Source: a virus
IMG/VR virus record: IMGVR_UViG_3300042880_000420
Span: 1 to 64,000 of that record
Reading direction: 5' to 3' (one strand)
Length of the DNA stretch: 64,000 nt
Shown: piece after piece, positions 28,092 to 52,658 of the stretch
How the letters are laid out: each line of letters opens with the position of its first letter
Numbering within the stretch: position 1 is the first letter of the stretch
Made by a program: the position numbers and the translations under genes
The notes under the pieces: generated by a model
Told to the model about the DNA's origin: nothing
Databases searched by the model: none
The model's input: the letters and a program-made list of their open reading frames with translations, nothing else

Positions 28092-28107
28092 TCTCTCCAT
28101 TTTTTTT
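28074..28107. terminator. Bidirectional terminator between the replication and virion modules
   Basis: AAAAATGGAGAGAT-TTA-ATCTCTCCATTTTT. Confidence 0.85.
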
Positions 28108-31100
28108 AATCTAATTGTTTTTGGTAGTATATCACCTGGTTTATATTACTCAATACAGGTAACACTTTAGTAATTTTTATTGCTGTCCGTTCAGCATCAT
28201 ATTCTAAGTTTCCATTTTCTTTTTCTATCTCCATTGCATAATAACCTATAGCTTTTGAAGCATCAAACCAATTTCTAGTTGTTCTAAAAATTGCTGGAAA
28301 TATTTCTTTTTGTAATTCTCCAGCAGATGTGGGATCAGTATAATAACTTAAATCTCTATTTAAATCTCGTAATTGTCTGAGTAGTAATAGATTGTAAAGT
28401 TTCTTATATCTATCATCATCTGGAGCCATTGCTTTCAAAATCAAATAAGCCATCCATAATGTTACAATTATTTGTAATTCTTTAACAGCTTTTTTAAAGT
28501 TTGCAAGTTCCATTTCGTCTGTGATTCCTGTCACTTGTTTTTTAAGAACTACGTCAAGCATCATTTTTAATATACCAAGTTTTTTCTCTAATACTTTTTT
28601 AACAAAAGTTCTATAATAACCTTCTTCATATCTACCTAACATATCATCTTTATGTTTAGGATCAAATCTTACACCAATAGTTTCAGGCAACCAACTTTTA
28701 AATAATAACACTAATCTTCCTATTGCATTTTCTTTTGCTTTAATATAAGTGTTTTTGCCAGACAGACCGTGTAATTTATTTGCAAGCTGTTTATATTTTA
28801 ATATTTTTTTATTATAATATTCTTCAAAAGTTAATCCTTCATTTTTATCGGCATCCCATTCACCATATTTTTCTGTATTATAATTTCTATCTTCTGTCAT
28901 AGAATCCCAAAAAGAAACTTCTTCTCCAAATGCAGTTTTAATTTTATCATGTAATGATGATGCCACTAACATTTCTGCTTTAAAATGATAATCACCAGAT
29001 GATAACCATGTATATGCATTAGGAATCATTTCTCTAAGTTTATCAAGTGAAGTTTTTTTATCAATAAGTTCTTTTAAATAAAATCCGTTTTCACCTTCAG
29101 CTATTCCTGCATCTATCATAATACCAAACAACTTTCTTGTAGTTTCTGTTTGTATTTTTCCAAATGATAAATATTTTTTACTGGCATCTATGATAATAAA
29201 GTTTGCTTTTATTAATTCTTTTTTATTAAAATCTCTTTCACTTGCTGCATGAATCCTATTATTAATTTTTCCAACTAAAAGGTTTCTACTAGCTGAAAAA
29301 GGTTTTAATGCAAGTGAACCGAGTCTTGTTTGAGTTATAAGTGAATCTATTATTGATGTAGCAGATATGTTTCTACCACCTAAATTCATATACTCTCCTC
29401 TAAATGCATACAGTTCGGCTTCTTTCTTTTCGCGAATTGCATCTGTTAAGTCTTCATTTTCAAGTTCTTCATTTAATTTTTTTATTTTATCTTCTAAGAT
29501 TTTAGCTTTTTTAGCTTTATCTGATTTCCAATATCCAAAAGATGCAAGTTCCATCCAGTTATAAAATAATCTTGAGGATGTTGGAAGTATATCTTCAGGA
29601 ATAGCACCATAAAAACTTGAAGCAACCGTTGCTTCAGCCAAAGACTTAATTCTTACAGCATCCTGTTGTTGTGGTTCTAATTCACCTAATTTTTTATTTA
29701 ATTTATAAGAACCTTCTGTTTTTCTTAATACATCAAGAATAGTGTCAACCTCTGATTTAATAATGTTTTTATGTTTATACATGGTTGCCATATCACTAAA
29801 CATTTTAGCAATTAAAACAAGATTTTTAGATCTATCTTCAATAGGAACATTTTCAGAAAGAAATCTTGTTTTAATATTAAATCTTTTCTTTTTAGTAACT
29901 GGATTAATTTCTACTTTGTTGTCAAAATTATAAGATGTAAGAGCTTTAAAAAACCAATCACCTAATCCATTAACAGATTCTTTAAGATTTGTAAAACCAT
30001 ATTCTTTAGTTAATCTTTCTGCAAGAACAGGTAAAAAATTTGAACCAAGAGAATCAATTTCTTCTTCAGGCAATCCTGCCAAATTTTTTCTGATAAAATT
30101 TGTGTACCAATTATAAAATTCATTTAATTCTGAATCTTCACTAATCTTAATAAAATTTTCATCATAGTAATCTACTTTTTTACCATCAATTGTTTTAACA
30201 GGAATTAAATAAACATATTTACTACCACCATATGCTGTAAACTTTTCAGCACCAATAAATTTTTGTTCGTAATATTTTAAAGGATTGTTTATATTATCAT
30301 ATTCTTGAACTTTTTCTTTTACATATTCTTCTAATGTTTTATCAGAAGGTATAACAGATGGATTTTCAAAAGCATCAATTTCAATTCTATGTTGATAAAC
30401 ATCTTTATTCCATAAAAATCTATTATATAGTCTTTGTGATTCTGCTATCATATTACCAATTTCAGAATCATTAAAACCTTTATCTTTAATCCTTTTTATT
30501 TCAGCATTTCTATCTGCATCAGTATATTTATCCATTTCTAAAAAATACAAAGCATTAAATGTTTCTGTATTTTTTTCTTTCCACTTATTAAAATAAGAAT
30601 AAGCTTCTTTTTGTTTTTCTTTGTCAGCACCTGCTTCATCAAGCTTCTTTTTAAGCAATGTATTTGCTTCTTTAAGCGAATCCCAGAAGTTTTGATTGTA
30701 TCTTGTTACAATTCCTAATGTTTCTTGTGAATCCTTTTTTTGTGTTTTTATAAATAAATCCCATCCAAATTTTTTAAAAGTGGGGTTATTTTCTATCAAC
30801 TTAAAATATCTATCTATCTCCGCATAGTTATTATTATGTTCACGATTGATTATTAAATTAACTTCATTAATAATGTAAGATAATTTATTTGTAATAGGAA
30901 TACCTGCTGTAGAAAGTTCTCTAACCCACTCTGTAAAGAATGATGTATCTGTTATTTTTAGTAAGTCTTCTTTTTTTAATTTAACTCCACGTCTTGATTC
31001 CTCAATTAAATTTAATGCAACAATTCTACCTTTTTCAGAAAATAAATTGTATGAATTTTTAATTTTTATTAATCTTTGTTTTGGAGATTCTTTTTCAATA

Positions 31101-31627
31101 AGAGTACCTTCTAGTCCCATTATTTGTTGTTTCTCATCACTAACACTGTCAATATTTTCTATTCCAAGAAGTACATTAATAGAATTCCATGTATCAATGA
31201 TTTCTTGTATAAATGTATAATCATCTAAGTTAAGATTGTTACTGTTAAAAGCAGCTTCAACAATTTTAATATCATTTTCAGCCATAGATAAAATTAAATC
31301 TAAAGTAGTTCCAGGACCAACTTTAGCTAAATGTTTGATAGATTCATTTGCTTCTTTAATGATTTTATCATAATTAACAATTTTTTCTATTTTTTCTTTT
31401 TTTGAAAGTCCACTTTGTTGTACAGCTTTCTTTTTATTAATAGCATCAGTTTTACGCTGATTCATTAATCGTATAGATTTTGTAACAATGTCATTTGGTT
31501 TTGGAGAAGTTACAATAGATCTCAACTCTCTAAACGATAAGTTATTTAAAGTACCATTTCTTTTTAAAGATTCTAAGAGTTCTTCTTTGGAATACTCTTG
31601 TCCAAGATATATATATTTACACGACAT
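28106..31627 (-). CDS. Large virion (ejected) protein downstream of the vRNAP
   Basis: 1173 aa, helical, only Cys at residue 3; position as in crAss-like ejection modules. Confidence 0.75.
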   Translation of the reverse strand: MSCKYIYLGQEYSKEELLESLKRNGTLNNLSFRELRSIVTSPKPNDIVTKSIRLMNQRKTDAINKKKAVQQSGLSKKEKIEKIVNYDKIIKEANESIKHLAKVGPGTTLDLILSMAENDIKIVEAAFNSNNLNLDDYTFIQEIIDTWNSINVLLGIENIDSVSDEKQQIMGLEGTLIEKESPKQRLIKIKNSYNLFSEKGRIVALNLIEESRRGVKLKKEDLLKITDTSFFTEWVRELSTAGIPITNKLSYIINEVNLIINREHNNNYAEIDRYFKLIENNPTFKKFGWDLFIKTQKKDSQETLGIVTRYNQNFWDSLKEANTLLKKKLDEAGADKEKQKEAYSYFNKWKEKNTETFNALYFLEMDKYTDADRNAEIKRIKDKGFNDSEIGNMIAESQRLYNRFLWNKDVYQHRIEIDAFENPSVIPSDKTLEEYVKEKVQEYDNINNPLKYYEQKFIGAEKFTAYGGSKYVYLIPVKTIDGKKVDYYDENFIKISEDSELNEFYNWYTNFIRKNLAGLPEEEIDSLGSNFLPVLAERLTKEYGFTNLKESVNGLGDWFFKALTSYNFDNKVEINPVTKKKRFNIKTRFLSENVPIEDRSKNLVLIAKMFSDMATMYKHKNIIKSEVDTILDVLRKTEGSYKLNKKLGELEPQQQDAVRIKSLAEATVASSFYGAIPEDILPTSSRLFYNWMELASFGYWKSDKAKKAKILEDKIKKLNEELENEDLTDAIREKKEAELYAFRGEYMNLGGRNISATSIIDSLITQTRLGSLALKPFSASRNLLVGKINNRIHAASERDFNKKELIKANFIIIDASKKYLSFGKIQTETTRKLFGIMIDAGIAEGENGFYLKELIDKKTSLDKLREMIPNAYTWLSSGDYHFKAEMLVASSLHDKIKTAFGEEVSFWDSMTEDRNYNTEKYGEWDADKNEGLTFEEYYNKKILKYKQLANKLHGLSGKNTYIKAKENAIGRLVLLFKSWLPETIGVRFDPKHKDDMLGRYEEGYYRTFVKKVLEKKLGILKMMLDVVLKKQVTGITDEMELANFKKAVKELQIIVTLWMAYLILKAMAPDDDRYKKLYNLLLLRQLRDLNRDLSYYTDPTSAGELQKEIFPAIFRTTRNWFDASKAIGYYAMEIEKENGNLEYDAERTAIKITKVLPVLSNINQVIYYQKQLD

Positions 31628-31629
31628 AG

Positions 31630-34600
31630 TTATTTACATTTTCTTTTAATGTCAAGATAATTAACAAGTTTATTTGAGTCTAAATCAATTAGATTTTCCA
31701 AGAATGATTTAGTGGTTGATATTGATTTTAATTCTTCTGTTGTACTTGTTTCTTCAACACTTCTTGATGAAACAATTCCAATGATATTTTTAATACCTTC
31801 TTTTAACACCATTTCATCTTTAACAGTAATTCCAAGTGCCTCAAGAAGTTTAGCAAAGATATCAATAAATCTTTCAAGTAGAGACTTTTCTTCACTATAA
31901 GGAGTATTATTCATAAATGATCTGAATTCTTTATCAGTCATTAACATACTTGCAAATTCATTAATATTTGTCAATCCATAATAAAAAGACTTGTCTTTAA
32001 CAGATAAAACCCCGTCTTCTTTATTAACTTCATTTATTGCATTTCTTAAGTTTTCAGCATGTTTAGGATCTTTTAATATTCTTTCCTGTGTTGTTTTAAA
32101 AAGATTTTCTAAAGCCATCACCCATTTTCTTTGTTCAGGGGTAAGTTTGCTTTTATCCATTTCAATTATATTAACCGTAAGATGGTGCATTAATTCATGC
32201 ATTATAACATCTTGTAAAGCATTTATATTTTCAGGATCAGATTCAAATGCAAGTTTTGGATTTACTTTAATTATTTTTTCAAATTTATTGTAAGTTCCAG
32301 GATTTGCTAATGTTTCATCAATAATAATTTGAAGATTACCAACACCGCCTGTTTTTGATACTAATGAAAGTATTTCTTTATAAAAAGGTTCAGCATCTTT
32401 ATATAAATTATTAAGTGCTGTTTTTGTATTTGCTTTTTTATCTACTCCAAATATATTTGTAGTTGCTTCTTCTATCTGATTTGCAACCAATCCTTTTAAA
32501 AATATATCATCAAAATCTACTATTTCAATTTCTTGTTCTTCTTCAATTTCAACTATATCTGATTTTAATTCAGAACTTTTATTTAATGGTGCAGAATTAT
32601 TTGTGTCTGTTATAGCACCTAAAAATACTTCCTGATTATTTACTATATTAGAACCAGCAGGTTTAATAATAATTAATCTACCACTTGTTCTTGTAAGGGC
32701 AACATACATAGAACTAAATATATCGTCTTGATTTACATTAGCAGCAAGATTTCTTTTAATATTATAATCACCAACAATTACATTTTTAATACTATTACCT
32801 TGAGCTGTATGAGAAGATCCTATGTATGAAGGTACATAAGGAGGTGTAAATCTTTCATTTAATTCATCTAATTCCGATTTTAATTTAATATAATCTCCAT
32901 ATTTTAAATTAAACTTTGCAATGATTTCTCCTGTTTTGTTATTTTTAATTTCAATTCCTTCTTGTTGTTTTGTAATTGGATTATATTTACCATATGTAAA
33001 TTCTCCTGTTTTTGGATTTCTTTCTCCACTTATTTCAAAACCAAGTATTTTATGTATATGCCTAACTCTATTTTGTCTATTATAAACTATAGTGTGTTCA
33101 ACTTCTACTTTAGTTCCTTTGTTAAAATAACGCATTAAAGCTGGAGATACATAATTTTCAATATTTTCAAAATTAGAAAATACATCTAACACTTTGAATC
33201 TTGCACCTGGTTTTATTGCACCTTTTGTTATTTTATATTTACCATCTTGAACACGATATTTTTGTTGAGATAATATTTTTTCAATTTTATTATCACTTGG
33301 TGTATACTCATAATCACTTGTAGAAATTTCAACTTTACCATCAAAAATTATATAATCTTGATTAGTATATAATCTATGTGCTGGAGTTGATGAATCAATT
33401 TCCAATTTTCTAAAATATTCATTTCTTATTTTAGTTGCTATGTTTTTTGTATTTGCATGTTCAACATTATTGTAATGCACCCAAAACATTCCATATGGAT
33501 TATTATTATTAATTAAATAATCAGTGTAGTCATCTATCACTCCATTTTCATTTGTAACTACAAGCATGTTTTCTGTTGATTGATTTGTCAACTTATCATA
33601 ATTTTCAAATGATAATTTTTGAACAGCCGCACCAGATTGTAAATTATTAATATTTTTAATAATTTGATTTCCAATAGAATCATACATTTTGTGTAATTGT
33701 TCATTATCTGAACGCATCACTTGAGTTAATTCTTTAGTTTTATTTTTATCCAAAAGTAATGTAGAAGAAATAACACCTTTATTAACATCAGAAGATTGTT
33801 GTTCACCAATTGGTCCTAATTGTCTATAATCTCCCATAAATATAAATACAGGCAATCTACTTATTAATCCATTATTAAGATCTTGTTTTAATCTTAATAT
33901 CATATCTGAAATATCTTTTTTACCAATCATTGAACTTTCATCAACAATTATAATATCAGGTCTTCCCATTGAAGGTTTAAACTGAGTAGAATTTATATAC
34001 TCTTTTTCTGAAGCTAAAGATAAAATTCCATCCACCATTCTATTTCTTCTTGTGTGGGCGGCAATTGTATTAACAGTTCCATCATTAGCATATTCACTAT
34101 CAAGACCTAATGATTCTTGAAGCACCGTGCTTGCAGTATGTGTAGGAGCTAAATACATTATACTTGGTTGAGTATATTTACTTTTACCCTCTATAGCAGC
34201 CATTATAGCTTTAATAACAGTGGTTTTACCAACACCACCTCTACCAGCTAGTCCAATCATATTATTCCACATATCAACTGGAATCAATCCATTGAATTGC
34301 TTTGTAAGAGGAGATGTAAATATTACTGTTTCATCTAAATTCTCAGCTTTAATTTGTTTTTTATTAGCCAGTAATTCTTCAACTTTATTTTTAATAAAAT
34401 TAAATGCTTCTTGTTGTCCATCATTCATTAAATAAATAGTATCATCTGTTTCCATAATGACATTATTATTTGGATTAGAACCTTTAGGAACATTAATTCT
34501 TTTTTCTGGTTTAGCAAGTGTTTCCTCTATAACAGGTGTCGGTCTGGTTTCTTCTGTAAGTATTACAGGAACCTCTATTTCTGATTTATCATTATATAAT

Positions 34601-40600: not shown

Positions 40601-43600
40601 TTTTTATCTTGTAATTTAATTTTAGTTTTAAAATTAAGTGCGGGATCAAATTTTAAAAACTGAATTGTTTTAATTTGAGAATTAAGATAATTAAGTTTCA
40701 TATCCAGAACCATCAGTCTTGCCATATCACGACCCTTGGCAGCTGTTTGTCTAAACCTATTTACATAATCGTTATTATTATATCCATTAATAAATAAGGG
40801 ATATGTATAATTATTTCTATCATCTTTTTTAATTATACCTAAAGAAATTAATTCATCTATTTGTTTTTCAACATCAGTTCTTAATTCATTTAAAACAGCT
40901 TCTCCAACCAGTTCTGAATATTTATTTGCCAACTGTTGCAAATCAAAATTTCCACTGTAAAGATCATTTCTAAACTCTTGAAGATTTTCATTTCTGTTTA
41001 AATTTGGGAGAAAATAAAAAAGCTTTGAAGCAATGTCATAATTTTCAACATTAATCTTAGATTTATTATTCATTGAAGAAATTATTCTAGAAACTTCTGG
41101 AGCAACAAGTTCATTATATATTTTTCTTTTTAATTTTGAAGTGTAAACAATTTTATCATCAACAATATTATAATCAGATTTATAACCAACTGGATTTGTT
41201 TCACTGTCTACAAAAAATTCTTTTGTCATTCTCGTTTCCATTCCTGTTGTTTTATCAGATAATGTAAACGCGATGTATGTACCAACATTTAAATTTTGTT
41301 GGTGTTGTAAAAACATTGTAACAATTTGATCTTTGGGGGTAAGACTTTTTCTTATCTTACCTTTTTGACTACCTTTTTGTTCTCTTATGCCATTAAAATA
41401 ATCTAATTCAAATGTAGATTGATTTCTAACCACTTTGTTCCAAAAATCAGATGCTGTTTTGGCTAAAGCAGAATTTGTAACAACAAGATTGCCATTACTA
41501 AATTCTCTTTTAATTTGTTCTAAATAACTGGGAAGAATATAAGAATATTTACTCTTACCATCTGCCGTTTTTGTAGATGTAATTTTATATTTTGCAGGAT
41601 TTGCTTCATAATATATTTTGGCAATTTTTTTCATAGATGTACTCTCATCCTGAAAACCATATTGACCAATAAAAGGAGTCTCAATATTTTTTGTAAAAGA
41701 CTCAAGAATATTCTCTAAAAGATTTTTCTTTTGAAATAAAACATTGAAACCTGCTTTCTTTAATGTTTTAGGAAGTTTTTTATAAATAAATTTTATTTCA
41801 TTATCTGTAAAGTTTATACCAAGAACATTAAAAAATTCTTGAAACTTTTTTTGTTGATCTACATCTGATTTATTTAAACCTTCCTCAATAATATTTTTTA
41901 ATTCATCTAATTTTTCTTGTTTTGGAAAAAGATTATTTAAAGCATCTTTTCTGTAAAAATCTGATTGTTTATGTTGTTCTAACCATTCTTTAGAAATTTG
42001 TAAATCAACACTATCTCTATTTGTAGAAATGATTTTAGAATCTTTTACTCCAAACACTTCAGATCCAACTTTAACAAGTTTATATAACAGCAATGTTTCA
42101 ACTGCATAAGATTTACTTGCAACAGTTAAAATATCATTTATTTTTGCAAAATCGTTTGTCTCAACATATTTATTAATTTTATCAATTAAATTATTAAGAT
42201 ATTTTCTTTGCTCCGCTCTAATTGCAAGACCACTTAAAAATTGCGTCAGTTTAGTATTATCAGCAGTAAAGTTTGTTAAATCTATTTCTGATCCAACCTC
42301 TAAAATATCAGCAAATACATCATTTGGATTTGCATAGATGGGAATGCCGAACTCTGTTTTTCCGGTGTATATTGTTTGTATTAATGCTTTAACTCTAATA
42401 CTTGCTGTATCTCTAGGATTAGTTTCAAAAACATTTTTATCATATCTTTCACCTATTTCTTTTTGAGATATTTCTGCACTATCTTCACTTTGATCTTCTT
42501 CATTATTTGTATTATCTGTTACAATAACATTTTCTATTTTATTTTTTACAATTCTAAGTCCATTGCGAGCCAAATCAAGTTTTACAAAATCAACATATCT
42601 ATCAAATTTTTCAACAATATTTGTATATATAGTTAACGCTTTTTTTAAATCTTCATAAGAATTTATATATTTAAGTAAATCAAATTTATTAACCATTTCA
42701 GAATATACATCTAAGCTCTTTATAGCTTGATAGTCTTCTTCAGAAGTAATAAAATCATTTAATATACCTGCTAATTTATTTTGTATTCCAACAAATGTTT
42801 TTTTAGATTCATTAAACGCCTGTTCTGGAGACATTTTTAATTTTTTTCCAGGACCAAGATCTCCTAAATTAAAAAGAACCATTGTTTTAATAAAACCTGA
42901 ATATTTAATTTCATCAGAAGATCTGAGCAATTCAGGATTAATACCTTTAGATAAATCTTCTAAAGACTTAGTTTTTATAGAATATAATACATCTTTCTTT
43001 TCTGTAGTATTAGTTTTACCACCAACAAAATTCTTAAATCCTTCTATATCTGCTTTAGATGAAAGTATGTGTATTTGTTCTGGTTCAAAAACAGCTATTT
43101 CTGTTATATAATCTTTTTTATGAGCTTTTAAATAGTCATCAGATTCCATATCAGTGTAAAAAGCATCATAATTATTACTTTTTAATTCTTTAAACTTTTC
43201 ATTATCTATTAAGGATATATCATCAATAGATCTAGTATATTTTGGGTTTTTTACATTTAATAAACTTGGTAAAACCGCTTTGTTAGTTTTATCTGTATAT
43301 GTATAAACTCCATTTGAGTAACTTTCTGCTGTTTCTTTATTCTGAGTAAAATAAACACCATTTAATTCTATATTACTCATCTCTTCATCAATAAACTTAA
43401 ACTTAAAATCTGTATTTTTTAATATGTTTTTTCCATTAGGACTACCATGATAAACAATATCTTTTACTTTACTATCAGGAAATATGGTATCAAGATATTG
43501 AGAGTATAGTTGTATAGCTTGTTGTTTCTGTTGGGGGGTTATTTCTTTTTTTGCTACAGGTTTCTTAATATTGATTAATAAGTCTATATACTCAGAAAAA

Positions 43601-44193
43601 GCGGTATTAGTTATAGCGCTAAGTACATCTTTTCCTTTAAATCTATTTCCTTGTTTATACTCCTCAATATCTTTTCTTATACCTCTGGTTTTTATATCTC
43701 CTAGCCATGAATAAAAATCTCGACTACTTAAGAATTTTGAATCATCCTTATACTTATCACTACTAGCAAGTTTAGATTTAATGAGTGTGTACAGTTCTTG
43801 GTCAGTTGATTCATCTAAAATCTCAACTATTTTATTTAATCTATCTATATCATAACCATTAAGTTTATTTTCTCTATATGGTATATATTCATAATAATTA
43901 TCTCCAAAAGGAGGTAAATCATCGGGTAATCCTAATTCATCAATTTGATTTTTTTGTTTAAACCCTAAAGCTTCATATACTTGATTAGCTAACTCAGGAT
44001 TCTCATTGAACAGTTCTTCTACTCCTGGTTTAACTTGTTCTTTGTTTTCTGTTTCAAATACAGGTTCAACAATATCATAATTATCAGCCGATGGTATATA
44101 TCCATACGAATAGAATTCTCTATAGGCATTAGTTTCGCCTATTTTATCTACTAATAATTTCCATTCAGCACTTTTAATGTTAGGACAAATCAT
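31630..44193 (-). CDS. Giant virion RNA polymerase (double-psi barrel type) fused to accessory domains
   Basis: 4187 aa; RIPNQ and catalytic GSDFDVDK (39037-39051), VDNAK; RecD-like and zincin motifs in the C-terminal part. Confidence 0.9.
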   Translation of the reverse strand: MICPNIKSAEWKLLVDKIGETNAYREFYSYGYIPSADNYDIVEPVFETENKEQVKPGVEELFNENPELANQVYEALGFKQKNQIDELGLPDDLPPFGDNYYEYIPYRENKLNGYDIDRLNKIVEILDESTDQELYTLIKSKLASSDKYKDDSKFLSSRDFYSWLGDIKTRGIRKDIEEYKQGNRFKGKDVLSAITNTAFSEYIDLLINIKKPVAKKEITPQQKQQAIQLYSQYLDTIFPDSKVKDIVYHGSPNGKNILKNTDFKFKFIDEEMSNIELNGVYFTQNKETAESYSNGVYTYTDKTNKAVLPSLLNVKNPKYTRSIDDISLIDNEKFKELKSNNYDAFYTDMESDDYLKAHKKDYITEIAVFEPEQIHILSSKADIEGFKNFVGGKTNTTEKKDVLYSIKTKSLEDLSKGINPELLRSSDEIKYSGFIKTMVLFNLGDLGPGKKLKMSPEQAFNESKKTFVGIQNKLAGILNDFITSEEDYQAIKSLDVYSEMVNKFDLLKYINSYEDLKKALTIYTNIVEKFDRYVDFVKLDLARNGLRIVKNKIENVIVTDNTNNEEDQSEDSAEISQKEIGERYDKNVFETNPRDTASIRVKALIQTIYTGKTEFGIPIYANPNDVFADILEVGSEIDLTNFTADNTKLTQFLSGLAIRAEQRKYLNNLIDKINKYVETNDFAKINDILTVASKSYAVETLLLYKLVKVGSEVFGVKDSKIISTNRDSVDLQISKEWLEQHKQSDFYRKDALNNLFPKQEKLDELKNIIEEGLNKSDVDQQKKFQEFFNVLGINFTDNEIKFIYKKLPKTLKKAGFNVLFQKKNLLENILESFTKNIETPFIGQYGFQDESTSMKKIAKIYYEANPAKYKITSTKTADGKSKYSYILPSYLEQIKREFSNGNLVVTNSALAKTASDFWNKVVRNQSTFELDYFNGIREQKGSQKGKIRKSLTPKDQIVTMFLQHQQNLNVGTYIAFTLSDKTTGMETRMTKEFFVDSETNPVGYKSDYNIVDDKIVYTSKLKRKIYNELVAPEVSRIISSMNNKSKINVENYDIASKLFYFLPNLNRNENLQEFRNDLYSGNFDLQQLANKYSELVGEAVLNELRTDVEKQIDELISLGIIKKDDRNNYTYPLFINGYNNNDYVNRFRQTAAKGRDMARLMVLDMKLNYLNSQIKTIQFLKFDPALNFKTKIKLQDKNISDLSSEEKVSIANSTWDEFSKRAAALIAPGTQGNWFWNRSNGKAYNDAGQDYITITSEDVKTTVKNINGDVLNKSEITDAQEFVTLQEHIDYLMSEGKIDLDSWESIYNKIKPGEYYELSEEEIKIVMSPVKPVYVYYSKIGDDASGLNRIDYVKSSRYPLIPQHEAGSERDKLRAWMEKNSVRSVNFASAKKLGRPSKSLKLFDENNNFIEPSKEDFEASKQLLSRSGIRNQQEVPEQKDEIATVTQMNRTLFDGLLNVKTFTFGNMSNVSGETGKKLKEAVRSKLFDIHANRLREELGNLNKTHENIYRLLKNVILNDTTGSYSEADLQAIELDPTTKKFKIPLEAQWALPKFQSLINSLINKNVMLKVEGTSFIQVSGVGAKYNFSKISKGVKSGIIWIDKYSDEFAKEDAKLKYIRQENGKTKAAQVIVSQYLRDEDGNLIDLSKYITEDKYGRKILNTSSFSEKMFQLIGTRIPNQSHPSTLPIEVVGFLPSYMENSIVVPDGITGQMGSDFDVDKLYAYISKFNYVDNKFNDVTYNLESIKDVANFTEDQLNQLYRDIHWEVLMNSATFSKITKSIDMPEVGDKVEMRKKQLEKYKLVEDITVNLPLDFMTSINRYIDNRSGKVGVGVFANLISAQADFQDKVMSLADAEDTPNPLQIKLSKDGEIIDLLYIGKLGESTSFIDKKRSISDNLNIMFTESVDNAKNQYLREFNWTEKAMSAVGFFAMLSDAKGQAAPIEFMMDLASQPAIVKLFELTEQKQDSFGAYDFNALINSSSEIQNTIIQTIDKEKYLPSGKTAESYFDVNNKERNSVIDAETLAETWIIGKAIAQKAGVEIFEQLAKDFKYDSVKDMMLTYYNTQYNAIDTFIRLENLGRELMIILGVVYPYTKGIGPNVFATKQKLYQLNKLSFTTNFSGINNIAGEIAKNDFTGDMEIDPVGEIGSAIANSLIFAQNDVYKQLFPISSGRHLESIVDVVLNFMGVDKSKLSKNSYETYYNTVFNSITSYIYTSPSFELFDNVILEREKLINGKTSIGFRTIELKQNPKYAKNGFLKNIDVEKDYSSETYTISFKAPFGQDIDVREVMSGFYELALDDSDEIKQLAKDFALYPYVTGDAGFIGRYIPIGYYNSDPEFNNAMKNFEKIYSDHISNDKSKLILIDQMVQNYPDTFSKSFNFTTRHTERGISDSTFKKVFKNIIKKESLKDVSNFTLKLADFPENDVKLKGIRQSLQVPLSDADSTYIRDKKLINIGFKYPAYILLSDEVVSDIPGVYNQFTSYLYKRTSDIATEDGSATYERVEILGYKNISEFDFNNPDLVSSIPMNNVNRNETTESEIEKPIAPAPITTQEGILNPADYTNHSGGAALSDTEWDQIGREFGVIEHKHYREPLEYIDTKGQAAKGSKTLDSKKLQTAGIKPTYIEQKDYNEGAQKATQAFRMMFTDAGNKSVRSAYIIRNWMQVKNADAIYALGTIKQPGENASDKAGETRIAAVPIVKGGTGYAVQMAINEGKPVYVFDGTKEGWYTYDYKVKNFVPTETPKLTKNFAGIGSRTLATEEVINKSLQAIRDVYENTFKSAQPTATTEVKPGVEISSNATGLAAALTNPTELAKSKGNLTQSYPVEFQGKTYKDAEAAYQALKSTATKDEGPNSTYNLMVNIITAKLQQHPRLVDEITNQGGSEWILNSTHQPTKQNSVWETGGNNWFIKSLNEAYENVTSVETTEPVKTYQGKIESLQPNQIFVFGSNPQGRHGAGAAQQAKNKFGAVQFVGRGLKNQSYALVTKNLTAGFVEKQTGIKYEKAGEKSLTPEQIQSNIKELYDFAKQNPDKEFLVAYRVDGKKNLNGYTDQDMADMFSAFPIPDNIVFEEEFSKLLSIKTTKPTQETEEEVIEEQPEVKSSVVEYGGKNYIIEGTMEDGYNVYFQAQGEKGQPVSDANLLSKVILTHEVNLHPDWVVTLTNIQNQPKYFVDLEGSIRSLQKTSFGDVIQSEDITKRVMSLYNDKSEIEVPVILTEETRPTPVIEETLAKPEKRINVPKGSNPNNNVIMETDDTIYLMNDGQQEAFNFIKNKVEELLANKKQIKAENLDETVIFTSPLTKQFNGLIPVDMWNNMIGLAGRGGVGKTTVIKAIMAAIEGKSKYTQPSIMYLAPTHTASTVLQESLGLDSEYANDGTVNTIAAHTRRNRMVDGILSLASEKEYINSTQFKPSMGRPDIIIVDESSMIGKKDISDMILRLKQDLNNGLISRLPVFIFMGDYRQLGPIGEQQSSDVNKGVISSTLLLDKNKTKELTQVMRSDNEQLHKMYDSIGNQIIKNINNLQSGAAVQKLSFENYDKLTNQSTENMLVVTNENGVIDDYTDYLINNNNPYGMFWVHYNNVEHANTKNIATKIRNEYFRKLEIDSSTPAHRLYTNQDYIIFDGKVEISTSDYEYTPSDNKIEKILSQQKYRVQDGKYKITKGAIKPGARFKVLDVFSNFENIENYVSPALMRYFNKGTKVEVEHTIVYNRQNRVRHIHKILGFEISGERNPKTGEFTYGKYNPITKQQEGIEIKNNKTGEIIAKFNLKYGDYIKLKSELDELNERFTPPYVPSYIGSSHTAQGNSIKNVIVGDYNIKRNLAANVNQDDIFSSMYVALTRTSGRLIIIKPAGSNIVNNQEVFLGAITDTNNSAPLNKSSELKSDIVEIEEEQEIEIVDFDDIFLKGLVANQIEEATTNIFGVDKKANTKTALNNLYKDAEPFYKEILSLVSKTGGVGNLQIIIDETLANPGTYNKFEKIIKVNPKLAFESDPENINALQDVIMHELMHHLTVNIIEMDKSKLTPEQRKWVMALENLFKTTQERILKDPKHAENLRNAINEVNKEDGVLSVKDKSFYYGLTNINEFASMLMTDKEFRSFMNNTPYSEEKSLLERFIDIFAKLLEALGITVKDEMVLKEGIKNIIGIVSSRSVEETSTTEELKSISTTKSFLENLIDLDSNKLVNYLDIKRKCK

Positions 44194-44206
44194 ATTTAAT
44201 TAATTA

Positions 44207-47200
44207 TTATGTATATTTAGATATGTTACAATCGTCTTTTTGTTCTTCTATTGTTTCATTAGAAACACCATTTTTAGAAAGAAATGCTAACATCTTAGCA
44301 GCCTTATCTAAATCAACAGGTGTATTCAATTGTTCTTTTGTTACTTCTGGTTTTTTTTCAATTATTTCTTCTACAGGATCAGATACAGGATTACCATAAG
44401 TATATTTTATTACTGGATTTGCAAAATAAACCCAGTCATCATTGTTGTTATTTGATTCGATTCCCTTTTCTAAATTGGTTTTCGCCCCATTCATAATATA
44501 CTGATTATATGTGATATTATTGGAAATAAGCTTACCATTTTCTACACCTAGTATATTTATTTTTTTTGTAGAATTAATACCTTTTAAACTATCATTTTTA
44601 GTGTCAGTATATCTAATAGATGTAAGTAAACCATCCATGTGTTCTAATATATTAGAAGGTGCATCTTTATCACTTCGTATTACAACATTAACATACTGAT
44701 CATTTAATTTACTTTGAAGTTTAATATTTCCATCATCAAAAATGTCTATTCTTGCAACATTTTCAGATAAGTCAGACCCACTTCCAGTTTTAGATAGAGC
44801 TTTACTATCTAAATTTGTTATATAATGGTTAATATATTTTTTAAGAATAACCATATCAGGTTTTTGACCAGGAATATATTCTGAACCAACTGCCTTATAA
44901 ACTTTATCAACTAAATCATTATTTTCTTCATTACCTCTAAATACACTCACTGCTTTTAAAATAAACTCCGATTGTTGTCTTGCAACATTAGGAAGTTTAA
45001 TAAATGTTGGAAAATAAACACCCGTTGGTGTAGGAACCATCAATAATGTGTATCCTTCATATTGCGAAAAATCATAATTAATTTCTGCTAATTTATTAGG
45101 GCTAATTTGCTGACCTTTATCAACTTCAATAAAACCATTACGTACTATTCCAAATACACCATGTCTGTTTTCCACTCCACCTTCTGAAACTTTAGGATTA
45201 ATTCTATCTTTTAATAATCCTGCTGAATTTACTGTAACAATTATTCCCATTGATTTATCTTCTATATTACCAGATAAAACAAAGGTAGGATTTTTAGCAT
45301 GATTATCCAACATAAGTTTTCTAAAAGCACGGTTAATCTTTAGCTGATTAACAAGAGTTGGAGGATTATCCATATCTCTTTCATTCTCAGGAATTACAAT
45401 ATTAACATATGTTTTTCCAATCTTTTTAGAAATCCAGTCTGGAGTGTGAACATTCCCTATTAATGTTTCTTTACCGTTTATTAAAGTGTATATTCCAATA
45501 TTTGCTTGATCATAATTTACATCAGGTTCAATCACTTTAAAATAAACTGATTTGCCCGGTAGAAATTCTGGAGTTGCAATATAAAATACATATGAATTAT
45601 TTACATCGCTTCTCTCATATCTTAATACGTTAGGAGAAACTTCCACCACATTATAATTATGTGTTCTTTGAGCTAAAGATAAAGCGGGTGCAACTTGTTT
45701 AAATCCTTCTTGAAATTTAACGTCAGAATTTTTACTTATATCATCAAGTGTTTTCTTTGTTCCAGTAAATACTTGATTAATATCTTCAACAACAAACTCT
45801 TCTTCTGTAGTTGTAATTTCTTTACCACCTTCTAAAGCAGCTAGTTCTGCATCATAATTGTCTAGTAAGTTTTTAGAAGCGATATTATACAAAGTAGTAA
45901 ACTCAGGAAAACTTATTGTTTTTCTATTAATAACAATACCTGTTCCATTAGAACTAGGGGTTTCCCATTGTCCAATATAAAAAGTTTCTGATTCAGAAAT
46001 AAGACGTGTATTTGCAACTACATCGTTTAAAGTTTTTACTCTACTTTCTAAAGATGGAATATCTGCTTTGTTAGCTCTAGGATTAGATTTGATTTCTTCT
46101 AATCTTTTTTCAGTATCAGCTAAGTCTTTTTCAGCTTGTCTAAGCTTTTCACTTGCCTTATTTTTTACATCAGCTCTAGCATCTGTAGAAACAGGAGCTG
46201 GTTTTTCTTTTTGAACAACCCTTGTGACTGTTATTTGTTCATTAGTTTCTGCATCATAAAATTTACCGTCTTCTTTTTTAAGAAATGAATATATTTCACC
46301 GTCAATGTCATCATTAAATTTATAATAAATAATATTATTTTCGGCTGTTATTATTGTAATAGGCCTGCCATTTATTTTTAAATCACCTTCTTTTTTAGTT
46401 TCCTCTTTCTTTTTTTCTTTCTTAATTTCTTCTTTTTTGGTTTCTTCTTGTATTACAATTTCTTCTTCTCCTTTATAAATAAGCTTATCTGATTCTTCTT
46501 TTATTTCTCTTGCTTTATCTAAATCATCAACAATAAAAACCACATTACCCGTCGGAGTGAAAACACCATACATACCATTTGCTTCTACAATAAAATGCTC
46601 ATCAGATTTAACAAGACCGGCTTTAATCTGTTCTTGTGCTGAATCATAAAGCATTTGATAATATGCAAGTTGAGAACCAACAATCATTCTTTCATACACC
46701 TGATTAAAATATTCAGGATTAGAAAGCATATTTACAGCATCAACGTGTTGTTGAAATTTGTTATTTAATTTTATATAATCATTAAAGTCAACAAAAAGAT
46801 CTTCAACTTCATTTATATTAATTACAGATTCTTTTCCAAATTCTTTATTTTTTAATTCAAGATAGGATTTAAATGCTTCATAAGATTTAGAAACTTTAAT
46901 TTCATCTATAAGTTCATCTTTGTTATTTAACCAATCGGTAATTGCTTGTTTTTGTTTTTCTTTTAATTCAATTTCATTTCTTAAATCTTTTTTACTTTCA
47001 TCAGAAATACCTTCAGATTTAAGTTGTTCTTTTTTAGTAGATATTTCAATTTCTAATGTCTTTATTTCTTTTTCTATATTAGCATCAGAACCTAAAATAT
47101 TATATGCAGATGCTAGAGAAGACCCAAGAGTTTTATGAGAACTTGCTTTACTAAAAAGTTCTCTTGATCTATCAATTGCATTTGTTGCTTTAAATTCATT

Positions 47201-49516
47201 TCCAGCAAGAACATCAATCATACTATTAAGAGCTTGTTTTTTATAAAGCTCTTTATTGTATTCTTTTGTTCCAAATTTATATCTATTGGGATTAGAAATA
47301 GCTCCGTATTTTTCCTGTAATTTATTATAAGTTTTTGCATATGACTCCACTGCATTTGCAACTTTATCAGTGTAATCCTGTGCAGATTTTTTATTTTCAG
47401 AAGTATAATCAAGACCGACAAATGCTTGTTCAAATTCTTCTTTAGACATGTTTTTACCATACTCCCTAAGAGTATCTATCAATGCCTCATGTGTATCATT
47501 TCTTACAGCTTGTGACACCATGCTGTGTAACATATCTGTACGAATGTTTTCATAAGCAAATTTATCTCCAAGTTTAGCTGCTTCATCTAATGCACTTGCT
47601 CCTTCTTTTTGTACATTAAAATTTTTAATAGATTCTGAAAAAAACTTAGAAGGATCTTTTGCTATTATATTAAATTCATTATAATAATTTTTTAATTTAT
47701 CTTCAGATTCTTTTTTATTCTTAAAATATTCTGCTTTTTGTTCTTCTGTAAGTCCGGCTGTTTTATATTTATCAGATACTGTTTCACCAATTTTTTTTAA
47801 TCCTTTTTGTGTAAGTACAGTGGGACCATGTATAATCATACCTGTTAAAGCACCAGATGCAAAAGTTTTTAAACCTTGCATATTCATTTGTGATTTAATA
47901 GCCCTATCTAAACTTTCTTCTTCACTTACAGTAGTATTGGGATCAAAACTTGCTTTATATGAATTTAAATAATAATCTTTATAATATTCATTAGACCCCT
48001 CTTGTAATAATTCTTGTATACCTTCTGTAACTTCAAATTTTAAAGCTGGTTTCATTATAGATTTAGCAAGAACTGTCCTTGCTTTTCTTGTACCAAAATC
48101 AGCTGCAATAGTTTTGTAATTAGAAAGTATACCACCAGTATAATACTGTGAAGTTGTTCTACCGTTTATTTTACCTAACACTTTAAAGCCTTTTTCACCA
48201 AGATCTTCTCCAAACTGAGAAAGTATTCTTGATGTTGCTTTAGAATTCTTAAATACATTATCAAACATTATACGATTTGATACAGCTAATACAGCAGAAT
48301 TAAAATTAAAATTTTTATCAGCGGCCTGCATTGCCACATTCTGCATTTTTTGAAGTTGTTCATCTGTTGCATATACACCCTTATTATTAAAATAATCATC
48401 TTGCATTTGATTATATAAATCACCAAATGTACCAGCAGCTTCCATTCTTGCTTCTGTAAATGCAAAATTTGCTTCAGATAATGTACGCTTTAATCCACTA
48501 ACTCCCACTTTAGCAATGTCACCAGCAAGCTTAGTTCCTGACAATCCCGCTAATTTACCTGCTTCATATGTTTTGCCAATATCCATTGCAATATCTACAC
48601 CTGGAATTTTTTGACCAACAGATGAAAAAAAGTTTTTTAATACAGCTTCATTTTTCCAAATGTCACCTAACTTTTTAAGAGCTTTAAAGTTTTTTGCAGC
48701 ATCATAAAATTCTTTACTTTTTTGAAACATTCTTGCAACTCTTCCAATATTTGCTGCAAGTTTAACATCAGCAGTAGTTTCAATTGCTGCTGCACCAGGC
48801 GCACCAACTCCACTAATAACCAAAGCAGCTTCAATGGCTTTTGTTAATAATTGTTCACTTAACATTTGAGCACCAGCACCAACCGTAAAACCAGCTTGTT
48901 GTAAAAAGTTTCCAAAAGTTTGTCTATTCCAAAACGTATCAGTTCCTTCTTTTGTAGCATAGATTGGATTGGAATTCATAATATCTTTTAATGAATCATC
49001 CAGCTCTAACATAGATTGTGCATCACCATGTAACCTATCCCAATCCCAATGAATTAAAGCATCTGTCATTCTACCCCAACCTTTCCATCCATCTGTAAAT
49101 CCATTATAAGCAAGTTTACCCATTCCTGAAAAACCGTTAGAAAGTACTTCAGACCAAGATTGATTCTGACCATATCTTTCTTCATTATCACCCGTCAATG
49201 ATATACCAAGTTTATAATAATCAGGAGATGAAACATATCGTGCAGTATTAATTTCATCTGCATTATAAGTTATAGGACTACCCATAAATCTTTCAGTGCC
49301 AGCAGAATTAAACAATCTACTGATTTCGCTGGCTACAGGACTTGTAGTTTGTTTAACACCACTATAAGAATATGGAAAATCAATATTACCATATCCTACT
49401 TGTGGAACTTGAAATTTTAATCCATCATTAGATATGTTAGGTTTAACAATATCTCCTGTAGGTGCAAGTAATTTTTCAATTGCAAATGGATCAAATGTTG
49501 ATTGAGGTGCAGCCAT
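44207..49516 (-). CDS. Large virion (ejected) protein upstream of the vRNAP
   Basis: 1769 aa; Gly/Ala-rich hydrophobic N-terminal segments, EGIQELLQ motif, only Cys at residue 1763. Confidence 0.75.
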   Translation of the reverse strand: MAAPQSTFDPFAIEKLLAPTGDIVKPNISNDGLKFQVPQVGYGNIDFPYSYSGVKQTTSPVASEISRLFNSAGTERFMGSPITYNADEINTARYVSSPDYYKLGISLTGDNEERYGQNQSWSEVLSNGFSGMGKLAYNGFTDGWKGWGRMTDALIHWDWDRLHGDAQSMLELDDSLKDIMNSNPIYATKEGTDTFWNRQTFGNFLQQAGFTVGAGAQMLSEQLLTKAIEAALVISGVGAPGAAAIETTADVKLAANIGRVARMFQKSKEFYDAAKNFKALKKLGDIWKNEAVLKNFFSSVGQKIPGVDIAMDIGKTYEAGKLAGLSGTKLAGDIAKVGVSGLKRTLSEANFAFTEARMEAAGTFGDLYNQMQDDYFNNKGVYATDEQLQKMQNVAMQAADKNFNFNSAVLAVSNRIMFDNVFKNSKATSRILSQFGEDLGEKGFKVLGKINGRTTSQYYTGGILSNYKTIAADFGTRKARTVLAKSIMKPALKFEVTEGIQELLQEGSNEYYKDYYLNSYKASFDPNTTVSEEESLDRAIKSQMNMQGLKTFASGALTGMIIHGPTVLTQKGLKKIGETVSDKYKTAGLTEEQKAEYFKNKKESEDKLKNYYNEFNIIAKDPSKFFSESIKNFNVQKEGASALDEAAKLGDKFAYENIRTDMLHSMVSQAVRNDTHEALIDTLREYGKNMSKEEFEQAFVGLDYTSENKKSAQDYTDKVANAVESYAKTYNKLQEKYGAISNPNRYKFGTKEYNKELYKKQALNSMIDVLAGNEFKATNAIDRSRELFSKASSHKTLGSSLASAYNILGSDANIEKEIKTLEIEISTKKEQLKSEGISDESKKDLRNEIELKEKQKQAITDWLNNKDELIDEIKVSKSYEAFKSYLELKNKEFGKESVININEVEDLFVDFNDYIKLNNKFQQHVDAVNMLSNPEYFNQVYERMIVGSQLAYYQMLYDSAQEQIKAGLVKSDEHFIVEANGMYGVFTPTGNVVFIVDDLDKAREIKEESDKLIYKGEEEIVIQEETKKEEIKKEKKKEETKKEGDLKINGRPITIITAENNIIYYKFNDDIDGEIYSFLKKEDGKFYDAETNEQITVTRVVQKEKPAPVSTDARADVKNKASEKLRQAEKDLADTEKRLEEIKSNPRANKADIPSLESRVKTLNDVVANTRLISESETFYIGQWETPSSNGTGIVINRKTISFPEFTTLYNIASKNLLDNYDAELAALEGGKEITTTEEEFVVEDINQVFTGTKKTLDDISKNSDVKFQEGFKQVAPALSLAQRTHNYNVVEVSPNVLRYERSDVNNSYVFYIATPEFLPGKSVYFKVIEPDVNYDQANIGIYTLINGKETLIGNVHTPDWISKKIGKTYVNIVIPENERDMDNPPTLVNQLKINRAFRKLMLDNHAKNPTFVLSGNIEDKSMGIIVTVNSAGLLKDRINPKVSEGGVENRHGVFGIVRNGFIEVDKGQQISPNKLAEINYDFSQYEGYTLLMVPTPTGVYFPTFIKLPNVARQQSEFILKAVSVFRGNEENNDLVDKVYKAVGSEYIPGQKPDMVILKKYINHYITNLDSKALSKTGSGSDLSENVARIDIFDDGNIKLQSKLNDQYVNVVIRSDKDAPSNILEHMDGLLTSIRYTDTKNDSLKGINSTKKINILGVENGKLISNNITYNQYIMNGAKTNLEKGIESNNNNDDWVYFANPVIKYTYGNPVSDPVEEIIEKKPEVTKEQLNTPVDLDKAAKMLAFLSKNGVSNETIEEQKDDCNISKYT

Positions 49517-52591: not shown

Positions 52592-52641
52592 TTCTATGTA
52601 TTATATTATAAATATACTTTATAAAGTTAAGACTAAAAAAC

Positions 52642-52658
52642 CAAACTTATTAAGTTTG
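52642..52658. promoter_or_regulatory. Palindrome CAAACTTATTAAGTTTG, operator-like
   Basis: A related palindrome recurs at 57212-57228. Confidence 0.45.

Follow-up and report, generated by a model that had tools for sequence, protein, structure and literature searches.

Why should three giant proteins of a virus, encoded side by side, contain almost no Cys except where the end of one faces the start of the next? We came upon this arrangement in a 64,000-nt stretch of viral DNA (positions 1–64,000 of IMG/VR record IMGVR_UViG_3300042880_000420; hereafter the window), in which three minus-strand genes encode proteins that we call X, R and Y. Crassviruses have to pack and inject over half a megadalton of cargo, among it the polymerase that initiates infection, and the question bears on how they do so.

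The predicted cargo trio and its cysteines

By re-translating the open reading frames of the window and counting Cys programmatically we found four Cys in the 7129 aa of the trio, at exactly the sites and codons listed in an earlier inspection of the letters and translations (the sequence-only reading), and with the same gaps of 13 nt between X and R (junction A) and 2 nt between R and Y (junction B). Table 1 lists these features. Both outer ends of the trio are free of Cys, and so are the 1022-aa and 684-aa proteins encoded upstream in the same operon, in agreement with that reading. The latter two matched no Pfam or PHROG family, and since they have no terminal Cys we place them outside the proposed chain. 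The earlier remark that cytoplasmic proteins are rich in Cys also holds for the DNA polymerase of the window (652-aa ORF at 22231–24189; phrog_1252, E 3e-131), which has 12. With the Cys content seen in the window's replication-side ORFs (1.51%), the trio would hold ~107 Cys in its 7129 aa instead of the 4 observed, and the probability that four random Cys land one in each 7-residue facing zone is ~2e-11. This placement probability, together with the junction counts and tree comparisons described below, rules out chance as the source of the pattern.

Table 1. Features of the predicted cargo module in the window, in the order of transcription
Feature	Coordinates	Strand	Description
Two Cys-free proteins	49523..54713	-	1022 aa and 684 aa; upstream in the operon of the trio
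X	44207..49516	-	1769-aa putative cargo protein, upstream of polymerase; sole Cys is Cys1763, 6 residues before the C-terminus
X Cys1763 TGT codon	44228..44230	-	C-terminal partner, junction A
R	31630..44193	-	4187-aa giant predicted virion protein with two-barrel RNA polymerase; Cys3 and Cys4186 only
R Cys3 (MICPN) TGT codon	44185..44187	-	N-terminal partner, junction A
R ART-PolyVal ADP-ribosyltransferase domain	43069..43458	-	aa 246-375; Pfam PF18760, E 3e-07, barely over curated cutoff
R polymerase core	38974..40728	-	aa 1156-1740; DFDVD motif, g066 similarity
R DFDVD motif	39037-39051	-	aa 1715-1719
R RecD/PIF1-like helicase P-loop domain	33625..34266	-	aa 3310-3523; Pfam AAA_30 1.6e-15, AAA_19 9e-12
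R zincin-like C-terminal domain	31690..32457	-	aa 3913-4168; domain HMM
R HExxH of zincin domain	32185-32199	-	aa 3999
R Cys4186 (..KRKCK*) TGT codon	31636..31638	-	C-terminal partner, junction B
Y	28106..31627	-	1173-aa putative cargo protein downstream of polymerase; sole Cys is Cys3
Y Cys3 (MSCKY) TGT codon	31619..31621	-	N-terminal partner, junction B

By sequence similarity, X, R and Y belong to a crAss-like phage and are its predicted set of RNA-polymerase cargo proteins. R is similar to g066 of phage phi14:2, annotated as 'catalytic RNA polymerase subunit' (tblastn E 2e-20; core HMM E 3e-78) and known as the virion RNA polymerase of solved structure, and the DFDVDK columns are invariant in 51 aligned R homologues. 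These matches make R a predicted virion RNA polymerase of the crAss two-barrel type, with ART, helicase and zincin domains in the same chain. By domain HMMs, X is the counterpart of phi14:2 g067 and crAss001 gp47 (the N-terminal-domain HMM of the window's X matches gp47 at E 3e-30, and an HMM seeded from X of one relative, L024, matches g067 at E 2e-23), and Y that of phi14:2 g065 and crAss001 gp49 (C-terminal part), which the C-terminal-domain HMM of Y matches at 4e-44 and 1e-42, respectively. Gene order, too, matches the Crassvirales cargo module: X, R and Y follow one another where the structural operon ends. X diverges fast: its last 399 aa gave no match by tblastn in GenBank phages, its last 499 aa alone gave none in an IMG/VR scan, and the X proteins of relatives were reached only via the polymerase alignment. 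Searches of PDB sequences with R and with a Y profile gave no match. AlphaFold2 modelled Y (mean pLDDT 62, pTM 0.42) as a largely helical protein in which a short hairpin directly follows Cys3; with this model, Foldseek found nothing in the PDB at E ≤0.001 and VIA-align returned generic helical bundles only (Z ~9).

Facing cysteines among relatives

The sequence-only reading had proposed to tabulate Cys positions in orthologous trios across Crassvirales and to ask whether facing Cys co-occur. We scored 194 same-strand junctions from 68 non-redundant IMG/VR loci. Both Cys are present at 70, a C-terminal Cys only at 6, an N-terminal Cys only at 4 and neither at 114 (Fisher P 3e-40 for co-occurrence, phylogeny uncorrected), so that single-partner junctions make up 10/80 of those that bear Cys and the proposed co-occurrence is indeed seen. 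At split breaks the upstream Cys lies 0–3 residues (max 14) before the C-terminus and the downstream Cys at position 3–6, with 2–5 residues, Met included, before it. The N-terminal Cys of Y is present in 23/23 homologues down to 23% identity, at position 3 in 22 of them and at position 4 in the most distant. Cys3 of R is invariant in 51 aligned homologues, the rows having been preselected for an N-terminal Cys, and in most of 120 giant R homologues (to ~25% identity) one Cys stands at position 3–7, another in the last 0–5 residues, and 0–2 lie internally. Internal Cys in the relatives number 86 in 373,388 aa. The outer termini are free of Cys throughout the relatives and reference phages examined; facing Cys are therefore not a general property of termini, and a rule by which every terminus has a Cys is ruled out.

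The pattern extends to phages in culture, phi14:2 and crAss001, whose cargo proteins have been found in virions by mass spectrometry. Terminal Cys follow the same rule in phi14:2 g067/g066/g065, crAss001 gp47/gp50/gp49, p-crAssphage gp45/gp44 and FpV4 gp32/gp33 and in cr1_1, cr4_1 and cr112_1, and also in crAss002 and cr110_1 if, and only if, the polymerase start is placed at an internal MSC. We found no published description of facing terminal Cys, and neither Cys nor disulfides are mentioned for crassvirus cargo proteins in bioRxiv 2020.03.07.982082, PMC10172136 or PMC7886860. Disulfides between subunits occur at the portal vertex and in the tail of crAss001 virions, and non-reduced virions of this phage have already been run in mass spectrometry; the cargo is not resolved in the reconstructions (PMC10172136).

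Most junctions are 1–3 nt wide, and at 31616–31638 of the window TGT AAA stands both before the stop and after the next start, as might suit a signal in the nucleotide sequence of the junction, for translational coupling or for ribosome hopping as in T4 gene 60. We regard such a signal as extremely improbable. Agreement between the partners in the use of TGT or TGC (50/70) equals that expected by chance (50.1), pairs are kept over gaps of 280–1500 nt and inserted genes, and the facing-Cys pattern is missing from control junctions of these operons. Moreover, crAss001 and cr112_1 encode X on the opposite strand and still keep the Cys pair. In crAss001 the inverted X gene lies 11.6 kb from the polymerase start, which refutes hopping or coupling and excludes recoding for junction A. 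A split intein or trans-splicing was also rejected, as the overhangs are too short (at most 14 residues after the C-terminal Cys) and no His-Asn precedes the downstream Cys.

The neighbourhood of the paired Cys bears on what might join them. Among 63 pairs, a basic residue stands at −1 of the C-terminal Cys in 54%, and at −2 likewise in 54%; within 5 residues neither a His nor a second Cys is conserved. A metal ion could hold facing thiols together, in a zinc-clasp-like site or another thiolate bridge, with the same chaining outcome. Such a bridge needs no oxidant and so fits anoxic habitats, and a pair of downstream proteins in one clade sets a C-terminal CxxC against an N-terminal CxxC, giving four thiols in a zinc-clasp-like arrangement. 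At the X/R/Y junctions, by contrast, each terminus offers one thiol with no conserved His nearby, which is why we prefer a disulfide to a metal site. A metal bridge also sits poorly with a pair of the same signature in Anabaena phage A-4L (A4), where gp27 and gp26 are joined inside the capsid by an inter-protein disulfide in a cryo-EM map at 3.4–3.6 Å (PMC12002296). We therefore consider a metal bridge improbable.

Split and fused genes

The sequence-only reading had further suggested that facing Cys might disappear where genes are fused. We scored gene architecture by domain HMMs, blind to Cys, and this is what we found. Split junctions carry the Cys pair, except in loci L035, L041 and L060, and fused junctions lack terminal Cys, the one exception being L080, which was scored as fused on a doubtful X match. 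Linkers at fused junctions hold at most one Cys and in most loci none. The fused giants are colinear with X-R-Y, which in some relatives form one polyprotein of 4700–7300 aa. The polymerase-core tree implies at least 15 switches between the split and fused states: at least 7 at junction A and at least 8 at junction B. In independent pairs the Cys pair tracked the switch in ~5/5 cases at junction A and 5/5 at junction B, and the reverse was never seen. Residue-level alignment of split junctions to fused sister proteins failed because the regions are too variable, and a search of the fused giants for the N-terminal module 'CPN..S.EWK' gave one internal copy, itself free of Cys (Y of L056/L057, aa 570–608).

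This joint gain and loss at junctions, at 10/10 independent pairs and with 70 junctions bearing both Cys against 10 bearing one, would go unexplained if the terminal Cys instead bonded copies of one protein (X-X, R-R, Y-Y) or a third virion component, as would the Cys-free outer termini; the A4 bond, too, is hetero and head-to-tail. We judge bonds of this kind quite unlikely, while noting that thiol partners are not distinguishable from sequence alone and that some upstream proteins carry an orphan terminal Cys (p-crAssphage gp47 Cys856, crAss002 gp30 Cys550 and a 479-aa protein of L048).

The position of the R/Y break is informative about a further possibility, namely that the pair serves assembly or regulation only, as a dock for co-packaging in equal numbers or as a cysteine-switch ligand of the zincin HExxH, with no covalent chain being ejected. 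In the window, HExxH lies ~190 residues before R Cys4186 and the break falls after the zincin domain, whereas in phi14:2 the break falls before that domain, which there belongs to g065 across the break; the Cys pair is present at both. Junction A has the pair with no zincin domain nearby. A purely static contact would also have no need for placement at the extreme termini and for the purge of other Cys, both of which suit a translocated thread. In favour of assembly or regulation, the A4 disulfide stabilises a static pre-ejectosome ring, and the fused polyproteins, the fusion of three cargo proteins in some phages being already known, have been described as 'likely cleaved' (Drobysheva et al.). 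If the polyproteins are indeed cleaved, the need for a lasting link is not obvious. On balance a role in assembly or regulation only seems unlikely to us.

A candidate disulfide thread and known systems

That facing termini are physically linked was the proposal of the sequence-only reading, with a disulfide or a shared metal site as the bond. From co-variation among orthologues and by analogy with A4 we infer such a link with good support; of the two bonds, the disulfide is favoured and the metal site disfavoured. We put at about 0.6 the probability that head-to-tail disulfides make the split cargo proteins act as one thread. In the particle, X Cys1763 would be bonded to R Cys3 and R Cys4186 to Y Cys3, and X, R and Y (7129 aa, ~0.8 MDa) would form a near-linear covalent thread, the equivalent of the fused polyprotein. 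With bonds at the extreme termini and internal Cys purged, there would be no loops or branches to block passage of a partly unfolded chain through the tail. Once inside the host, the thread would come apart as the reducing cytoplasm breaks its disulfides, and the polymerase would be released. Thread-like ejection and reductive release we purely infer. Because synthesis takes place in a reducing cytoplasm and the anoxic gut is home to many crAss-like phages, an oxidation step after assembly must be assumed.

In its fullest form, the proposal would have the terminal disulfide stand in for the peptide bond throughout Crassvirales whenever the polyprotein gene (up to ~7000 codons) breaks, each new end gaining one Cys in evolution, with an X-S-S-R-S-S-Y thread being fed N-to-C and cutting in the cytoplasm timing the release of the RNA polymerase. 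This form appears possible to us but doubtful. One reactive Cys pair per protein break amounts to a concrete hypothesis on cargo order, stoichiometry and release and, if true, would mean that a single disulfide can compensate for gene fission in giant proteins. Fusion of cargo proteins in some phages, the A4 disulfide and the lack of Cys in N4-like phages were already known, and to these our analysis adds that crAss cargo proteins have Cys at facing termini, that this pattern is conserved and that it co-varies with gene architecture.

Among the closest known systems are the cargo sets of phi14:2 and crAss001, which are homologous to the window trio and share its functional order and terminal-Cys pattern. 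R, however, is about twice the length of their polymerase protein and carries the additional ART, helicase and zincin domains.

The N4-like phages (Schitoviridae: N4 gp50-52, DEV gp71-73) also eject a giant virion RNA polymerase with partner proteins in which Cys are nearly absent, a feature that has been explained by translocation across the envelope (PMC11445570). The same paper states that the N4 virion RNA polymerase has no Cys, as the sequence-only reading had noted. However, N4-like proteins have zero Cys even at their termini, while the crAss set keeps precisely the junction Cys, and their polymerase is a T7-like single-subunit enzyme as opposed to the DFDxD two-barrel polymerase predicted in the window. 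We rejected the trio as a Cys-free operon of the Schitoviridae type on the grounds of its DFDxD polymerase, its four terminal Cys and the lack of a PDB sequence match.

A4 resembles the window in having consecutive giant ejection proteins with a C-terminal Cys in the upstream and an N-terminal Cys in the downstream one; a check of the sequences gave Cys1715 as the sole Cys of gp27 (1717 aa) and Cys5 as that of gp26 (1114 aa). HMMs of the X, R and Y domains matched none of A4 gp26-gp29 (E ≤1), and because homology is not detectable this precedent may be an analogy only. A4, a member of a T7-like podophage family, has a single link and carries no polymerase cargo, whereas crAss-like phages would have two or more serial links. 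Furthermore, the crAss Cys pair tracks gene fission and fusion, whereas the A4 bond has been treated as stabilising a pentameric ring, with no general rule drawn from it (PMC12002296). If the disulfide thread is real, the lone bond of this cyanophage would become the rule for a whole order of abundant phages.

Cysteines of the three cargo proteins

The minus-strand cargo proteins X, R (which holds the virion RNA polymerase) and Y contain four Cys in 7129 residues by direct count on their translations, as the sequence-only reading had claimed. The sole Cys of X is Cys1763, six residues before its end; R has only Cys3 and the penultimate Cys4186, and Y only Cys3. The proposed codon coordinates of all four, the intergenic gaps (X/R 13 nt, R/Y 2 nt), the Cys-free outer ends of the trio (X N-terminus, Y C-terminus) and the absence of Cys from the 1022-aa and 684-aa proteins upstream of X were likewise recovered. 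Since replication-side ORFs of the window are 1.51% Cys, ~107 would be expected in 7129 aa; P is ~2e-11 for four random Cys falling one per facing 7-residue zone.

Features of the window (R domains in residues of R)
Feature	Position	Strand	Description
X	44207-49516	-	1769 aa; first of trio
R	31630-44193	-	4187 aa; middle of trio
Y	28106-31627	-	1173 aa; last of trio
ART-PolyVal domain of R	aa 246-375		Pfam
Polymerase core of R	aa 1156-1740		invariant DFDVDK motif
RecD/PIF1-like helicase of R	aa 3310-3523		Pfam
Zincin C-terminal domain of R	HExxH at aa 3999		HExxH motif
DNA polymerase ORF	22231-24189		652 aa, 12 Cys
827-aa protein	54724-57207	-	upstream of Cys-free proteins; Cys at 28/35 and 279/282; aa 210-275 a DUF3597/peptidase-like stretch

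R combines a crAss-type virion RNA polymerase with further enzymes; its core matches the 'catalytic RNA polymerase subunit' g066 of phi14:2 (HMM E 3e-78; tblastn E 2e-20). The window's version is a polyvalent fusion of ART-PolyVal, RNAP core, RecD/PIF1-like helicase and HExxH zincin; in the relatives' precomputed Pfam matches AlkB, NADAR and SprT domains are exchanged in. For X and Y no family was found in Pfam or PHROG, and the predicted structure of Y, of middling confidence, matched nothing specific in fold comparison. HMMs seeded from the window matched crAss001 gp47 (X) and phi14:2 g065 and crAss001 gp49 (Y), and phi14:2 g067 was matched by an X HMM built from a relative's protein (L024). 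X, R and Y are therefore the known Crassvirales RNA-polymerase cargo set, whose presence in virions is reported for phi14:2 and crAss001.

The terminal Cys recur in homologues. Y homologues begin M-x-C or M-x-x-C in 23/23 cases, at identity down to 23%, with 0-3 Cys besides. Of the 120 R homologues listed (identity to ~25%), most carry one Cys at position 3-7 and a second within the last 0-5 residues, with 0-2 across the intervening 3000-5000 residues. In 135 cargo proteins totalling 373,388 aa, 61% of all Cys fall in terminal zones that account for 0.87% of the length, and internal Cys occur at 0.23 per 1000 aa, compared to 16.9 in ORFs on the opposite strand of these loci. Off-pattern R homologues sort cleanly into three classes (Cys at the N-terminus only, at the C-terminus only, or none), and these are the informative cases.

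Cysteine pairs at split and fused junctions

Relatives were collected as 78 IMG/VR loci (23-68% identity) via an alignment of 51 giant R homologues. They show four architectures: all three genes separate, X+R fused, R+Y fused, or all fused into 4700-7300-aa proteins. Colinear order (X, R, Y) is kept in the fused giants. The sequence-only reading expected facing Cys to co-occur in orthologues and to disappear upon fusion, and this is what we find. Among 194 same-strand junctions from 68 non-redundant loci, 70 carry the pair (one Cys near the upstream C-terminus, one near the downstream N-terminus), 10 a single Cys (six C-terminal, four N-terminal) and 114 neither (Fisher P 3e-40, uncorrected for relatedness). 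Split or fused status was assigned from domain HMMs alone to avoid circularity with Cys. So defined, all split junctions have the pair save those in L035, L041 and L060, and fused junctions lack terminal Cys, their linkers holding at most one Cys and none in most loci. The sole fused-scored locus with an N-terminal Cys, L080, owes its score to a doubtful X match. On the polymerase-core tree the state changed at least seven times at junction A (X/R) and at least eight times at junction B (R/Y). The pair moved with the change in ~5/5 (A) and 5/5 (B) phylogenetically independent pairs and never oppositely (sign-test P 0.06 for either junction alone; by our own arithmetic ~0.002 for 10/10 combined). 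Pairing of the facing Cys is thus strongly supported by co-variation. Residue-level alignment of junctions between split and fused sisters failed, the sequences being too variable.

L035 and L041 have an additional gene of 394-406 aa between X and R (L035:8109-9293, L041:7548-8768), with CxxC at residues 41-45; here the C-terminal Cys of X is missing and the polymerase retains Cys3. In two further loci (L056:10558-16272, L057:16947-21215) Y is extended N-terminally by ~560 aa with its own Cys4, and the usual N-terminal module, now internal (aa 570-608), has lost its Cys.

TGT AAA stands on either side of the window's junction B and might be taken as a sign of ribosome hopping, but three results speak against it: partners agree in TGT/TGC usage at 50/70 junctions (50.1 expected); pairs are kept despite inserted genes and gaps of 280-1500 nt; and in crAss001 and cr112_1 both Cys of the X/R pair are kept although X is encoded on the other strand (in crAss001 at a distance of 11.6 kb from where the polymerase starts). 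The R/Y break falls after the zincin domain in the window and before it in phi14:2 (HExxH at g065 aa 245), with the pair at both. The Cys therefore track protein ends rather than a domain or DNA signal.

Named phages

In phi14:2 the only Cys are the last residue of g067 (1797 aa), Cys3 and Cys2179 of g066 (2180 aa) and Cys3 of g065 (1421 aa). crAss001 has only Cys2339 of 2341 in gp47, only Cys5 in gp49, and Cys5, Cys1334 and Cys2404 in gp50 (2412 residues). In p-crAssphage the gp45 end (..SCM) faces the gp44 start (MSC), and gp44, an R+Y fusion, has no C-terminal Cys. FpV4, cr1_1, cr4_1 and cr112_1 also obey the rule. crAss002 and cr110_1 fit only if the polymerase starts at an internal MSC: an in-frame Met precedes S-C at residues 33-35 of crAss002 gp33 (L082:12902-25639) and 15-17 of cr110_1 gp40 (L088:13809-27062). 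Annotation seems to put both starts too far upstream, the internal Met giving the usual MSC facing the preceding protein's C-terminal Cys.

In Kehishuvirus (crAss001, L086:1120-19724; cr112_1, L089:1886-20681) the X gene (gp47) points the other way from those of the polymerase and Y. The cargo genes therefore do not form a single operon there, and the rule is still kept. Read with table 11, the annotated cargo genes of cr4_1 (L090:3784-26700), which carry the pair, have 7-38 stops in frame, and a stop codon is therefore reassigned. An annotated thioredoxin and a truncated one lie ~2 kb past the p-crAssphage polymerase gene (L083:27173-27451 and 28171-28440) and may be relevant to disulfide reduction after entry.

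Chemistry of the termini and a possible bond

Among 63 pairs, 0-3 residues follow the C-terminal Cys in 59, every N-terminal Cys occupies position 3-6, and the residues at -1 and -2 relative to the C-terminal Cys are each Lys or Arg in 54%. A metal bridge could also join facing thiols; however, with one thiol per end, no further ligands and essentially no His within five residues, a disulfide is favoured. Two recurrent modules follow the N-terminal Cys: 'CPN..S.EWK.L' and 'C[KL]Y.Y.G.EY'. Depending on the lineage, either of them is found on R or on Y, a hint of a small docking element.

In an R+Y-fused clade, a ~260-aa protein ends in CxxC (e.g. ..C.TC*) and the next, ~280-300 nt downstream, starts M..CxxC and matches the PHROG 'structural protein' family phrog_697 (L019:20010-25585, L021:19492-21902, L033:15537-17563, L037:22886-25301, L063:8715-11104). 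These four facing thiols look like a zinc clasp or double disulfide. Orphan C-terminal Cys, facing proteins without an N-terminal Cys, occur in smaller upstream proteins (p-crAssphage gp47 and gp48; crAss002 gp30; L048:114-1553; L043:3-809), frequently after a Gly/Lys-rich tail (..RCGGHRR, ..RCGGKKKIA, ..GGKLKRC).

The reading with the best support has the facing thiols joined head to tail by a bond inside the particle. Split products would then act like the relatives' fused polyprotein; bonds at the extreme ends would leave the thread nearly linear, loss of internal Cys would avoid loops and wrong pairings, and the reducing cytoplasm would set the parts free. The bond itself, ejection as a thread and reductive release are what we infer. 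Against this reading stand the reducing cytoplasm where the proteins are made, the anoxic habitat of many of these phages, the literature proposal that fused polyproteins undergo cleavage, and the few junctions with a single Cys, and rival explanations are homo-dimeric bonds, bonds to a third party, or a pair needed for assembly only. In favour of the head-to-tail bond, disulfides between subunits occur in the tail and portal vertex of crAss001 virions, in reconstructions that did not resolve the cargo (PMC10172136), so such bonds do form in this phage order.

The crAss literature searched makes no mention of cysteine in these cargo proteins. Cys suppression in ejected proteins is already known from N4-like phages (PMC11445570). 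Domain HMMs found no homology between X, R or Y and gp27 or gp26 of cyanophage A4 (Anabaena phage A-4L), whose pre-ejectosome contains a gp27 Cys1715-gp26 Cys5 disulfide in a 3.4-3.6 A map (PMC12002296). The A-4L genome encodes these two proteins (1717 aa and 1114 aa) in consecutive genes, and neither has any other Cys, a signature identical to that of X, R and Y.
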